NCBI GenBank assembly: GCA_048882485.1 | Contig: JBHLRP010000021.1 | Span: 1 to 56,648, forward strand | DNA from: Candidatus Thorarchaeota archaeon | Lineage (GTDB): Archaea > Asgardarchaeota > Thorarchaeia > Thorarchaeales > Thorarchaeaceae | DNA length: 56,648 nucleotides | Direction of reading: 5' to 3' | Shown here: positions 33,754-51,776 of the stretch, one piece after another | How the letters are laid out: each line of letters starts with the position of its first letter | How positions within the stretch are numbered: position 1 is the stretch's first letter | The notes under the pieces: model-generated | What the model was told of the DNA's origin: nothing | What the model saw: only the letters and a program-made list of their open reading frames with translations | The model's database searches: none | Translations under genes and position numbers: made by a program

Positions 33754-33874
33754 TTGCGAGCTCCTGCCTGGCCGCAGACGTTGCCGCGTGGAACAATTCA
33801 TCAGCATTAACCTTTCCATCTGGGACCAATTTTGTATTACTAAGGCTGAAAATGTGAACATGTGTTCCAATTTT

Positions 33875-34159
33875 ATGCCATTTTTCCTCTATTTGTATGA
33901 TTGTCGACGAGCTCGTGAAACCAATGCTCGACGTGTTTCATTCACAAAGGAGCTCTATGGATATTCCTACACTTGGAAAACCAAGACTGGAATTAGACAG
34001 AAAAGGAAACTTGGTCTCATAGATACATCAGGTGCATATGCCGTGGCTGACTCGGCAATATTGGTACCAGGAGAGTATAGATCTCTCTTCGATTCACTGT
34101 TTGCATCCTATTCTGACATATTGAAGGCTAGAGTCTTTGAAGTCGTGAGAGAAGTCTAA
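33875..34159 (+). CDS. Small basic hypothetical protein, possibly Cas2/VapD-like ferredoxin fold
   Basis: 94 aa; LYLYD strand, RRVSFTKELYGY helix, GLID..SAILVP; ends immediately before the origin. Confidence 0.55.
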   Translation: MPFFLYLYDCRRARETNARRVSFTKELYGYSYTWKTKTGIRQKRKLGLIDTSGAYAVADSAILVPGEYRSLFDSLFASYSDILKARVFEVVREV

Positions 34160-34162
34160 TGA

Positions 34163-34431
34163 TTGGAACACGTGTTCCAAGACGTAACACACCCCTTGAT
34201 TTCCATTAGAAACTTTTGAAAGTTTCGATACTTTTCGAAAAAGGTAAATATAAATATCGGTTTGCAAAGCTCGCATTCATCTCCATTTTATCATCATCAT
34301 TTTTTCACCGCTCTTGATCCTTCCATTTTATCAGTTCCAGTGGAAATGAAGGGGTGCCAGACCATAATATCTGGATATAGGATATATTAGTATGTTAGAA
34401 CACGTGTTCTATGGTATTATTTGTAATACGA
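34163..34431. other. Replication origin (oriC): palindrome, ORB, AT-rich DUE, ORB, palindrome
   Basis: Inverted ORBs at 34191-34213 (-) GTTTCTAATGGAAATCAAGGGGT and 34334-34355 (+) GTTCCAGTGGAAATGAAGGGGT flank an AT-rich tract; TCCATTTTATCA direct repeat at 34282 and 34322; palindromes at 34163-34180 and 34396-34411. Confidence 0.82.
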
Positions 34432-34531
34432 TATCATGTTTAAGGAGTCTTTCCAGTACCACAAGGTTGATAGACCGAGTTATCTCCGGACGATTTGCTC
34501 TTGTCATTTACGGAGATCGGAGGCCAGGTGA

Positions 34532-49597: not shown

Positions 49598-49743
49598 GAT
49601 AGGACCCAAACGAAGTGAATAAATAGTCTGTTATACTATAATATAATAGTAAGTGCAAGTTCTAGTTTCCAAACGCAGGGCTTTTGGTTACATTAAGACA
49701 CAGTCGACTTCCCAGCTACCATTCGCTAGGGTGATTACTTCAA

Positions 49744-50271
49744 ATGGCACATGCGAACATAAATCATGACCTTTTCCGCCTTGTAGTTGAAGAGATATCA
49801 GGCAAGGAAGGTGTGGACGTTGCATCCGTCCTTGTAAATGCGGAAGAAACCACAGATGAGGAAATTGCAACCAAGACCGATTTGAAATTGAACATAGTTC
49901 GTAGAATTCTTTACAAATTGCACGATAATCACCTCGCCTCTTACCGTAGGATTCGTGACACTAACACAGGCTGGTTCCTTTACTACTGGAAAATCGACCC
50001 GAAAAAGGCTCAAGCTCTTGTCAATCGGAAGAAACGTATGGTATTGAACCTACTCGAACAGAGACTAGAACACGAAACCAACAATGACCTCTATGCTTGC
50101 GTGAACCGTGATTCATCTCCAGTTCCATTCGAAGAGGCAATGAATCTATCATTTCGTTGCCCCTCATGCAACGAGCAGTTAGAATATGTTGACAACAAGA
50201 GGGCCATTAACTTTCTCAAGAAACGCGTAGAGGAGCTAAAGGCGGATCTAGAAGCTACATCTACAACATAG
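49744..50271 (+). CDS. tfe: Transcription factor E alpha
   Basis: TDEEIA..VRRILYKL..TGWFLYYW, FRCPSC. Confidence 0.95.
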   Translation: MAHANINHDLFRLVVEEISGKEGVDVASVLVNAEETTDEEIATKTDLKLNIVRRILYKLHDNHLASYRRIRDTNTGWFLYYWKIDPKKAQALVNRKKRMVLNLLEQRLEHETNNDLYACVNRDSSPVPFEEAMNLSFRCPSCNEQLEYVDNKRAINFLKKRVEELKADLEATSTT

Positions 50272-50338
50272 AGAAACTTGGCCTTTTTCAGAAACCTACT
50301 TAGCAAGCAAGTAATAGCCAGCATCCGGAGATGGACTG

Positions 50339-51112
50339 GTGAAGCGTCTAGTTCTCAAGGCCCGTGCCTATGGGTCATTTAGAGGAAGAATCCTTCATGC
50401 AGTAGAGTCGGAAATCTCTGAGATGACAAGGGAGCTTGATGTGAGTCTGTCACGACTAAAGACCGACAACAGAGACCGCATAATCATCGAGGTCAATGGG
50501 GAAGACGAGGAATTTGTTGCTAATGTACTTTCCAAAGAATATGGCACAGTAATCGCTACTGATGCTATCTCAGTTGGGTCGGTGTATTACGGACATTTTG
50601 TAGATGTTGGAAAGGTCGGGTATGGTCTATACGTCGATATTGGTATAACCACACCACTTCAAGTCGATACTCTGATTCCCCTTTTTCGTCTTCGAGAACA
50701 GCTTTCAATGGAGAAAACCTCACTACGTGCAATTGCCAAGACAGTCGTCTTTGTAGACAACCTACCCGTCAATGTCAGCATAACAAGCATCGACAATCGA
50801 GGTCCCAAAATCGAGGCCGAGCTTGCTGAGTCGTTTCTCAATCAACTCAATCGGTGGGTGGAAGACGATCATGAACGATTGCTCATTCTAGGTTGTACTA
50901 GAAAGATGTTAGATGACGCATTGAAGAAATCCAAGCACTTGGAAGACATCTATCGAGTGGAAAGACTCGGCAGTTTCGAGTATTCGCTCAGATGTAAAAG
51001 AAGTACACGGGCATCTGGGATATTGGCGGCCATCGGTCCAAAACTTAGGGGCGTGCCAATGCACCTATTTATTCCAGACGAGGTGGGAGAGAAGTATCAT
51101 GCCAAGACTTGA
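50339..51112 (+). CDS. DUF2110 family protein
   Basis: GKVGYGLYVDIG, ERLG..C..T..GI..IGP; typical position after tfe. Confidence 0.8.
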   Translation: MKRLVLKARAYGSFRGRILHAVESEISEMTRELDVSLSRLKTDNRDRIIIEVNGEDEEFVANVLSKEYGTVIATDAISVGSVYYGHFVDVGKVGYGLYVDIGITTPLQVDTLIPLFRLREQLSMEKTSLRAIAKTVVFVDNLPVNVSITSIDNRGPKIEAELAESFLNQLNRWVEDDHERLLILGCTRKMLDDALKKSKHLEDIYRVERLGSFEYSLRCKRSTRASGILAAIGPKLRGVPMHLFIPDEVGEKYHAKT

Positions 51113-51776
51113 TATTTGGCTCGTGGAAAAAGGCTATTTCTCTTCGCGACAGGCTGCAAAACGCGCTATACGGGCGGGTCATGTCAAAGTAAATGGAGCT
51201 CTGTCAAAACCGTCAAAAACCATCAAGAAAACAGACTCGGTCGTTGTATCAACTGTAATACAAGACAATCCAATTGGATATGCTAAACTCAAAGAGATTG
51301 ATGATTATTTAGAAGGAAACCTACTGTGGGATATCAATCTGGCCCTCGACATTGGCAGCTCCGCTGGGGGTTTTTTAACCCTTTTAGGCGAGAGGAATAT
51401 TCGTGCTGTAGGTGTCGAAGTTTCTGATGAATTTGCAGAAACCCTTGAAGAACTTGTGGAAACCTATCCAACCATTTCAATTCTAATTGATGATGCTTTC
51501 ACAATGGACCCATCCATTGTCTGCAATGAAGGCACATTGGATTTGCTACTTGTGGATGTCACTACTGATCCAGACGGCACAATCAACTTGATTCAGAGAT
51601 TCTCTTCTCTCATGAAGAAAGGCAGTCGACTTGTGGCAGCCTTCAAAGCAAGAAGCACTCCTGAAACAATAGAGGAGTTGCGTAGACAAGTCTCTAGACT
51701 GGGTTTTGTCGAAATTCTGAATCTCACCCTTGACAAGACCCGTCAGGAGATACATCTGATAGCCACTCGACATTGA
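51099..51776 (+). CDS. S4-domain TlyA/FtsJ-like RNA methyltransferase
   Basis: RLDIWLVEKG..SR..A S4 domain, LDIGSSAGGF. Confidence 0.85.
   Translation: MPRLDIWLVEKGYFSSRQAAKRAIRAGHVKVNGALSKPSKTIKKTDSVVVSTVIQDNPIGYAKLKEIDDYLEGNLLWDINLALDIGSSAGGFLTLLGERNIRAVGVEVSDEFAETLEELVETYPTISILIDDAFTMDPSIVCNEGTLDLLLVDVTTDPDGTINLIQRFSSLMKKGSRLVAAFKARSTPETIEELRRQVSRLGFVEILNLTLDKTRQEIHLIATRH

Follow-up and report, generated by a model that had tools for sequence, protein, structure and literature searches.

Introduction

Type Ib partition systems, such as ParF-ParG/parH of TP228 and delta-omega of pSM19035, encode a small tailed protein of the ribbon-helix-helix (RHH) type right after a nucleoside triphosphatase (NTPase), and use short tandem repeats beside or before the operon as both centromere and operator, with one protein dimer per repeat unit. 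Here we describe a locus of comparable design in a 56,648-nucleotide stretch of DNA (hereafter, the window) from a Candidatus Thorarchaeota archaeon of the Asgard lineage (GenBank assembly GCA_048882485.1, contig JBHLRP010000021.1). It consists of a field of phased arrays of 9-bp units, each built around the palindromic core GTAWTAC, which lies at a predicted replication origin and encloses an operon for an AAA+ ATPase and a 95-amino-acid (95-aa) tailed protein. The RHH nature of this small protein is predicted, and the use of the arrays as centromere and operator, with one dimer per unit, would follow by analogy. The locus also differs from type Ib systems in three respects. The NTPase is of the ParA type (ParF or delta) in those systems, whereas here it is an Orc/Cdc6-like AAA+ protein; the present locus is chromosomal and origin-linked, with about 15 arrays dispersed over 14 kb, many of them intragenic; and its unit is a 9-bp palindrome rather than a 7-bp heptad or a 4-bp box.

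SegAB of the Sulfolobales is likewise an archaeal chromosomal system, most of whose short palindromic sites fall within genes, the strongest cluster being adjacent to the operon. In SegB, the C-terminal DNA-binding domain is preceded by a variable insert and, at the N-terminus, by a conserved region that binds the ATPase (10.1101/2025.02.07.637068; 10.1101/2025.04.15.649018). The tripartite layout of the 95-aa protein (N-terminal peptide, linker and putative DNA-binding domain) matches that of SegB and ParG; no sequence similarity between the 95-aa protein and SegB was found. According to one study, SegB homologues are found mainly in Thermoproteota and in few Euryarchaeota. SegAB differs from the present locus in that SegA is a ParA orthologue and the SegB motif is a 13-bp TCTAGA-S-TCTAGA, with sites spread chromosome-wide.

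In bacterial ParABS systems, palindromic and often intragenic parS sites are clustered in a few to tens of kb near the origin and the par operon, where they nucleate a large complex. ParB, however, is a helix-turn-helix (HTH) CTPase clamp that spreads from 16-bp sites, whereas the present locus has tandem 9-bp units, an RHH-like putative binder and an AAA+ protein. MetJ recognizes tandem 8-bp metboxes, in which a palindromic unit of about one major-groove contact is repeated head to tail two to five times and bound by cooperative dimers, but it is a metabolite-controlled repressor of a dispersed regulon, whereas the arrays described here occupy one chromosomal domain and lie mostly off promoters. 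MatP/matS operates at the terminus over hundreds of kb, in contrast to tandem arrays within 14 kb at an origin. Archaeal Orc1/Cdc6 initiators resemble the ATPase of our locus in the AAA+ base-plus-lid, the G-x-x-R sensor-2 motif and the position beside origin recognition boxes (ORBs). They are, however, about 400 aa long with a winged helix, whereas the ATPase here has 324 aa without one, and a canonical Orc1/Cdc6 initiator is encoded separately on the minus strand of the window at 9884-11077 (NF001623, 361 bits), 23 kb from the origin. We found no description of the element, of the motif in such a context, or of an Asgard segregation, partition or origin-organising system in the searchable literature. 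What is new here is the occurrence of the cassette in five Asgard families, the switch of the DNA motif together with the small protein, and a transitive link of that protein to the RHH family through a homologue, P0369.

Results

The field is the sole cluster of its kind in the assembly

We searched the 3.96-Mb assembly (157 contigs, with the window being contig C21) for exact GTAWTAC cores. The window contains 19 of them, as compared with 2.72 ± 1.63 in dinucleotide-preserving shuffles (largest 8), and its base composition is flat throughout. Seventeen cores lie within 33834-51261, exactly where an earlier sequence-only reading of the window had listed them, and the other two are located at 17934 and 55733, the former being the one core that this reading had noticed by eye in the first 33.8 kb. 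Its composition-based (mononucleotide) expectation of about three cores in 17.5 kb was too generous: the assembly-wide total is 212, and the density off the window contig is 0.049 per kb, which gives an expectation of about 0.9. At most four cores occur in any other 10-kb stretch of the assembly; a similar density elsewhere, which had been set beforehand as a refuting observation, was thus not found. The excess also persisted in the second refuting test that had been named, a codon-preserving shuffle that retains every protein and the codon usage of each gene, with 11 intragenic cores observed vs 2.8 ± 1.5 (n = 1000; largest 8). Outside the field, only two sites were convincingly array-like, neither of them homologous to the window: GTATCAC gt GTATTAC in a divergent intergenic region (C8:2486-2501), and ATATTAC tt GTATTAC at a gene end (C155:290-305).

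Each array comprises two to four tandem 9-bp units around a single exact palindromic unit, T-GTAWTAC-A. The core-aligned consensus is tgGTATTAnyT-GTAWTAC-AA, and the exact unit is therefore a 9-11-bp palindrome. A partner copy matching at least 5/7 positions at +9 or −9 bp accompanies 13 of the 17 field cores, as compared with 6 of 195 cores elsewhere. The sequence-only reading had counted fourteen cores with copies in register; the fourteenth (40940) has its partner copy at +18. The mean heptad match was 4.65/7 at offset −9 and 3.18/7 at +9, and about 2.0 at other offsets and around cores elsewhere in the genome. In a pair scan that requires no exact core, unit pairs in which both members match at least 6/7 occurred 12 times at offset 9 in the field and 10 times in the other 3.95 Mb, while none was present in the field at offsets 7, 8, 10, 11 or 12. 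A fixed array polarity was considered and rejected: the unit at −9 is stronger on average, yet partner units occur on the left, on the right or on both sides, site by site.

The arrays are also evenly spaced. As the earlier reading had stated for most of them, the gaps between field cores range from 501 to 1398 bp in 15 of 16 intervals, with one of 2929 bp. For the first 15 sites, the coefficient of variation of the gaps is 0.30, a regularity that was reached in none of 20,000 random placements, and the minimum gap of 501 bp was also unexpected (P = 1e-4, random placements). Five arrays are embedded well within genes, and two more occupy spacers of convergent gene pairs. In iorA and hypF, both of them long, one and two internal arrays, respectively, keep the spacing near 1 kb. 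A 19-mer, TGGTATTATCAGTAATACA, is present twice, in a HEAT-repeat gene and in acdA, in different reading frames.

The arrays are conserved as DNA

We next compared 40 kb around the AAA+ gene in ten relatives, nine of which belong to the same family (eight genera). All nine family relatives have 13-32 cores per 40-kb region, and their fields comprise 12-26 arrays, span 11-20 kb and show mean gaps of 0.7-1.2 kb; the extent of the field relative to the AAA+ gene and the origin is also alike in all nine. In a relative assembled as a single contig of 2.58 Mb (G004), seven of the eight copies of TGTAWTACA fall in one 13-kb stretch.

Synonymous sites are saturated in this family: in the codon alignments, only 29 of 1096 degenerate columns with an invariant amino acid were also codon-invariant. 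The array-overlapping columns, 15 of the 1096, hold nine of these 29 (Fisher P = 7e-12). On this evidence from aligned sequences, the boxes are under purifying selection as DNA, at orthologous codons in hypF, acdA, iorA and the HEAT-repeat gene, and the array sites are almost certainly functional, selected binding sites. The earlier proposal of position-specific sites rather than conventional operators is thus well supported: there is one field per genome, it occupies orthologous codons, and the synonymous positions at its intragenic arrays are frozen.

Two further comparisons were set aside. Four genomes of the family without a match to the AAA+ protein (G047, G051, G054 and G076) were considered as natural knockouts, but they lack hypF and V-ATPase subunit D as well, so these assemblies do not contain the region at all. 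They are 86-91% complete; the origin region seems to drop from some metagenome bins. A covariation of the flanking base T at −1 with the small-protein sequence across genera was not interpretable, because the sole deviant (G019) has the highest G+C content.

The field brackets a predicted replication origin

Two inverted ORBs at 34190-34213 and 34335-34357, with their G-strings pointing outward, enclose an AT-rich stretch of about 120 bp (34190-34357). The boxes match the archaeal ORB consensus. The archaeal layout of ORB, duplex unwinding element and ORB is found here, and this is the sole ORB pair with G-strings in the assembly; we predict that it is the replication origin. The sequence-only reading had placed the field on one side of the origin, which is nearly right, except that the box at 33834 sits on the far side, so that the boxes bracket the origin. 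They bracket the ORB pair in G004, G011, G017, G018, G023 and G024 as well, and the distance between ORB elements and the AAA+ gene is about 10-11 kb in six of nine relatives.

A second palindrome, GAACAYRTGTTC, flanks the origin in every relative examined and has 10 copies in the whole genome. In the window it occurs in the form (T)GGAACAYRTGTTCC(A) near heptad boxes at 33856-33867, 34166-34177 and 34398-34409, and also at 171 and 25070. Two to four copies stand beside the ORBs in every relative examined, including the families f2, f7 and f19 (GAACATATGTTC in f2). Judging from this distribution, it is probably the site of another origin-associated protein.

A third ORB at 30126-30147 adjoins the gene for a conserved 212-aa protein (30454-31092). 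This gene belongs to a set that recurs at Asgard origins: a 176-212-aa protein by a lone ORB, a protein of about 100 aa (FGY.Y.W...DSAILV) by the ORB pair, the ATPase, the tailed protein, a UPF0251-like protein and hypF. In the window, the set is found at 30454-31092, 33860-34159, 37045-39378, 40095-40643 and 43811-45075, and in f19 at L106/L107 (G121) 16295-24907; in f19 it is packed into about 8 kb, whereas in the window it extends over about 15 kb.

The operon encodes an Orc/Cdc6-like ATPase and a tailed small protein

The 324-aa AAA+ ATPase is encoded on the minus strand at 44101-45075, with Walker A (GPVGSGKST), Walker B (LFVEDV) and sensor-2 (GNPRDIR) motifs. Its gene is single-copy, is found in 78 of 86 genomes of the order, and its products share 76-98% identity within the family. 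The structural model (predicted local distance difference test score, pLDDT, 71) retrieved Cdc6 and Orc as the top hits both in Foldseek (E 5e-7 to 3e-6) and in VIA (Z 12.5-13.8 over 250-259 residues), with 1w5s, 2qby, 1fnn and 7jgr as the nearest solved structures, at a margin of 1-2 Z over other AAA+ folds such as the filament-forming MuB (11.5) and TnsC (11.3). The chain ends with the lid at residue 324, leaving no winged-helix domain. None of the Orc family models of NCBIfam and Pfam matches the protein, whereas the true Orc1 (9884-11077) scores 361 bits; the match to Pfam AAA_22 is 24.1 bits, below the cut-off of 27, that to AAA_16 is also weak, and JGI labels the relatives ExeA-like. As modelled, the fold is an AAA+ base-plus-lid of the initiator clade, nearest to Orc/Cdc6.

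The 95-aa protein gene (43811-44098, minus strand) starts 2 nt past the stop codon of the AAA+ gene. At its N-terminus the protein has the invariant peptide MS(L/V)L(G/K)KYR, which a variable, acidic linker connects to a strand-helix-helix domain at the C-terminus; in this domain, an invariant VPNKERKSPI(V/M)SFS segment, predicted to be extended, is followed by two helices. This domain is probably an RHH. An hhalign comparison with eight genuine RHH_1 domains of the genome aligned residues 45-84 in the expected register (P = 0.015). A profile search of 1.84 billion representatives returned 12 relatives, and those tested were unnamed by Pfam. The full-length homologue P0369, a protein of family f25 with the N-terminal peptide MSLLQKYRKEE, scores 19.0 bits on RHH_1 (cut-off 20.5).

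In RHH proteins such as MetJ, Arc and omega, one beta-ribbon enters each major groove, while HTH dimers need half-sites about 10 bp apart; the unit is 7 bp for omega and 8 bp for MetJ, and ParG is likewise arrayed. By analogy, we infer that a 7-9-bp palindrome repeated every 9 bp would fit one RHH dimer per unit, side by side, and not HTH dimers. Pfam revealed no ParB-like or MatP-like domain among the field proteins, and the sequence evidence makes it somewhat likelier that the operon-encoded 95-aa protein binds the arrays than that it does not. A predicted complex of the ATPase and the 95-aa protein scored 0.00, with the fold of the partner uncertain, and was unused as evidence either way. 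A likeness of the 95-aa protein to viral RPB6 homologues (PDB sequence-profile E about 0.3) was rejected as noise, because Pfam Rpb6 gives no match.

Cassettes in other Asgard families

The ATPase family was detected in five of the 27 families sampled (f1, 53/57 genomes; f2, 1/1; f7, 3/3; f19, 5/6; f25, 4/5), and was not found in f9 (0/93), f5 or f21. In f25, the gene for an ATPase of 42% identity is followed by that for the RHH homologue and by a 1.1-kb spacer, in which five arrays each hold three to four GTAWTAC units at the 9-bp period. The 16-kb locus has 10 cores in total (1.5 expected), nine of which fall within 3.5 kb around the operon. No ORB was found in the contig stretch fetched for G200, and one ORB-like match lies 9 kb off in G220. 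By analogy, this layout is that of a classical partition cassette, with the same compactness as in type Ib systems.

In f19, which includes a closed genome, a small protein gene also stands next after the ATPase gene, and its product resembles by eye the f7 counterpart, which is not detectably homologous to the Thorarchaeota 95-aa protein. The f19 region has no heptad arrays. Instead of GTAWTAC, we found TGATATCA units with a period of about 13 bp: GATATC occurs 39 times vs 9.5 expected, and tandem pairs nine times vs 0.025. The intervals between these arrays are irregular (0.7 to 4.8 kb). Relative to the operon, the arrays extend from −5.4 to +6.6 kb, and an ORB pair is found at −2.2 kb (L106/L107, G121). 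GATATC arrays are likewise found within and around the f7 operon. At about 110 bp upstream, G030 and G040 also have an exact heptad or two, and G139 has none. In f2, one TGTAATACA is located 95 bp upstream of the AAA+ gene. A scan of palindromic heptamers for an alternative field motif in the f2 genome (G025) gave a mild GTANTAC excess (13 vs 5.7) and no arrays, and this candidate was dropped.

A box upstream of the AAA+ gene is thus a feature not only of the window but also of f2 (−95), f7 (−108, −119) and f25 (−22, +25), and physical linkage between the boxes and the operon is seen in four Asgard families. Across f25, f19, f7 and f2, the cis motif appears to change with the small protein, and the operon comes with arrays. 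Their dispersal over a 14-kb field is an elaboration specific to the family of the window.

Site-by-site features of the field

The conserved core of the field, 33834-47661, runs from the origin to the trm5/pan intergenic region and holds 15 GTAWTAC arrays in 9-bp register at a mean spacing of about 1 kb. The 17.5-kb extent given earlier was too wide, because the outermost cores, 50584 and 51255, are not conserved past the nearest relative. The isolated core in a DUF2110 gene (50584-50590) is partnerless and absent even from the closest relative, and is therefore probably due to chance; the double array in an S4-domain gene (51246-51261) is kept in the closest relative only.

At the origin end, a single core (33834-33840) on the far side of the origin lies 22 bp from the GAACATGTGTTC palindrome; the closest relative retains it, and gapped alignments show a core in two more. 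The double array GTATTAT tt GTAATAC (34414-34429), upstream of iorA, adjoins the right ORB and the GAACACGTGTTC palindrome. The core of the triple array in iorA (35574-35598) is kept at orthologous codons in five of nine family relatives. A double array (36434-36449) is positioned at the iorA/iorB junction. The sequence-only reading had placed many cores inside genes or between convergent genes, which is correct for hypF, acdA, iorA and the convergent spacers, whereas the box at 36443 lies just past the iorA stop codon, within the uncertain 5' end of iorB.

Two triple arrays are embedded in hypF. In the first (37817-37841, codons C-I-T), the core is kept in eight of nine relatives and TGT ATT is invariant; in the second (38870-38894, codons C-N-T-G-Y), the core is kept in seven of nine, with codon-invariant columns present. 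A single core (39943-39949) lies between the genes for a 138-aa and a 182-aa protein. The array at 40940-40964, an exact core with a 5/7 unit at +18, falls at the 5' end of the HEAT-repeat gene, whose start is uncertain, and a triple array (41679-41703) deeper in this gene holds one copy of the 19-mer. The residues encoded there vary (VLSVIQ or VISVLQ), while the DNA boxes persist. The protein encoded by this gene (40911-42263, plus strand) is a fast-evolving HEAT/Armadillo-repeat protein of 32-46% identity between genera, and its gene always lies inside the field, with two arrays. A double array (42263-42278) marks the junction of this gene with acdA, with the box at 42272 at an uncertain gene start.

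The triple array in acdA (43242-43266, codons G-I-I-S-N-T) has its core exact in all nine family relatives: the codons GGT ATT AT(C/T) AGT AAT ACA are essentially fixed in ten genomes (GGT, AGT, AAT and ACA invariant), with flanks of about 70% identity. A double array (43761-43776) is situated between the convergent acdA and 95-aa-protein genes, and its position about 1.3 kb from the AAA+ start is retained in relatives. The triple array at 45091-45115, 16-40 bp upstream of the AAA+ start codon, is from its position the probable operator of the AAA+ operon. Beyond it, double arrays are found between the convergent atpD and NAC genes (46248-46263) and between trm5 and pan (47646-47661), the latter being the last conserved array. 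The arrays at 34414, 39943, 40940, 42263, 45091 and 47646 are at 5' regions or gene junctions. The genes of the field are otherwise unrelated housekeeping genes (iorAB, hypF, acdA, V-ATPase D, NAC, Trm5, PAN, aMBF1 and TFE), and no transposase or integrase was found among the field proteins.

The 182-aa protein (40095-40643, plus strand) has relatives that JGI in part calls 'predicted DNA-binding protein (UPF0251 family)', and in f7 a homologue (37% identity, E 5e-26) is encoded by the third gene of the AAA+ operon. The 138-aa protein (39507-39923, plus strand) is confined to the dispersed-field family (21/24) and was not found in f2 or the other families. Several genomes have paralogues of it elsewhere, one of which, on C110, has an in-frame TAA; the paralogue lacks adjoining boxes. 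Its match to the EBNA1 DNA-binding domain (E 0.12) was not significant, and feature-based atlas look-ups for the 138-aa and 182-aa proteins gave no named family. Divergent from the AAA+ operon and upstream of atpD, a gene at 45126-45533 (plus strand) encodes a small three-helix membrane protein and shares with the operon the triple array in their 50-bp spacer. A small membrane-protein open reading frame also precedes atpD in G025 by eye, where BLAST detected no homologue. This protein may belong to the ATPase gene atpD rather than to the cassette.

Discussion

We propose, with a probability of about one half, that the field is the cis part of an origin-proximal cassette that is centromere-like or organises the origin domain. 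This sequence-based proposal is favoured because the 9-bp palindromes fit RHH arrays and the adaptor design matches SegB and ParG. Within it, a function in segregation or positioning is conceivable at somewhat short of even odds. One RHH dimer of the 95-aa protein would occupy each palindromic unit, with adjacent dimers in contact as in the arrays of MetJ, omega and ParG, and about 15 arrays at intervals of about 1 kb would turn the 14 kb beside the origin into one large nucleoprotein domain. Through its N-terminal peptide, MSLLGKYRK, which the flexible acidic linker tethers, the 95-aa protein would recruit the co-transcribed Orc/Cdc6-like ATPase or stimulate it. Together they would hold the origin regions after replication, position them or separate them. 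The array before the operon would allow the operon to regulate itself. In its boldest form, which we regard as unlikely, this would be a new segregation or origin-handling machine of several Asgard lineages, composed of an Orc/Cdc6-like motor or switch in place of a ParA, actin or tubulin homologue, a tailed RHH adaptor and a phased-array centromere at the origin.

Several observations weigh against the cassette as we read it. The relatives are not independent, and the conservation counts therefore overstate the number of independent observations. The ATPase is an AAA+ protein with a lid domain and lacks the deviant Walker A of ParA, so it is not of the ParA type, nor is it of the ParM or TubZ type; because its nearest folds are replication initiators, replication control is suggested as much as segregation. 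Pfam RHH_1 does not match the 95-aa protein itself, and a fold search with its poor monomer model (pLDDT 63) gave nothing significant. The RHH binder of the sequence-only reading is therefore upheld in part, by the 19.0 bits of P0369 and by the motif that follows the small protein, but not by a direct RHH_1 or fold match. The 182-aa or the 138-aa protein could alternatively be the binder. The heptads in f7, present despite a non-homologous small protein, blur the covariation. Finally, the sole f2 genome has the operon and the origin with only one or two boxes and no field, and a large field is thus not needed to retain the operon.

Of the alternatives, a replication-control domain is rather unlikely, although it is the most serious. 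The arrays would recruit the ATPase via the small protein to license, time, sequester or limit initiation, or to help or restrain MCM leaving the origin, without any movement of DNA, an effect to be likened to that of the bacterial datA, DARS and SeqA clusters or of UBP at Sulfolobus origins. The structural neighbours of the ATPase, Cdc6 and Orc, are in keeping with this, as are the boxes that bracket the ORB pair and adjoin the second origin-flanking palindrome in the relatives examined, and the gene neighbourhood that travels with ORB origins in several Asgard families. There is also a precedent, since a Sulfolobus chromatin protein binds an origin motif together with many other sites and contacts MCM (PMC12141716). 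However, a 14-kb, one-sided and evenly spaced field far exceeds the known origin accessory elements, and the compact cluster of f25 occurs without an ORB in the G200 stretch and with one ORB-like match as far as 9 kb off in G220. The preference for Orc/Cdc6 over MuB and TnsC is small, and the ATPase has neither the winged-helix domain nor a match to the Orc1 NCBIfam models.

It is improbable, but compatible with the even spacing of many sites over about 14 kb, that the arrays are a domain boundary or loader, that is, a roadblock or loading platform for SMC-type complexes or chromatin with the ATPase as a remodeller. MatP, an RHH-containing organiser that acts on dispersed palindromes, shapes the Ter domain through matS, and ParB-parS loads SMC. 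Moreover, SegB binds mostly within genes, at sites that have been linked to chromosome compartments (10.1101/2025.02.07.637068). The cassette, however, contains no SMC or kleisin gene. Sequence does not tell this explanation from the centromere-like one, and the two are not mutually exclusive.

A local transcriptional regulon, in which the small protein represses neighbourhood genes through the arrays as operators, is very improbable. Autoregulation is common among RHH partition proteins and antitoxins, one array is in the promoter region of the operon itself, and several others are at 5' regions or gene junctions. This explanation does not account for the five arrays deep in coding sequence and the two between convergent genes, nor for the even spacing and the frozen synonymous sites; in addition, the adjoining genes are functionally unrelated, and only two candidate comparable sites exist in the other 3.95 Mb. 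A restriction-modification or methylation target was rejected, because such a motif would not cluster in one 14-kb region. Chance, composition, codon usage or mobile-element debris, for which nothing speaks beyond the AT-richness of the motif, has a negligible likelihood in view of the excess over both the dinucleotide- and codon-preserving shuffles, the flat composition, the orthologous conservation in eight genera and the lack of a transposase or integrase; the two shuffles, the frozen synonymous sites and the 9-bp pair counts refute it.

Taken together, conservation of the ATPase, the small protein and the DNA element extends over five Asgard families, in which adaptor and cis motif appear to co-evolve. 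The boxes provide a practical marker of the origin region in Thorarchaeota metagenome assemblies, and they clearly exemplify selection on DNA that overrides the choice of codons in essential genes. If the ATPase is the engine or the switch of the cassette, an AAA+ class would be added to the three known classes of partition NTPases, and an ORC-type ATPase would be linked to centromere-like DNA. For the Asgard archaea, among which the eukaryotic host cell has its origin, the locus offers a testable candidate consisting of a DNA element, a small protein with a candidate peptide for partner binding, and an ATPase.

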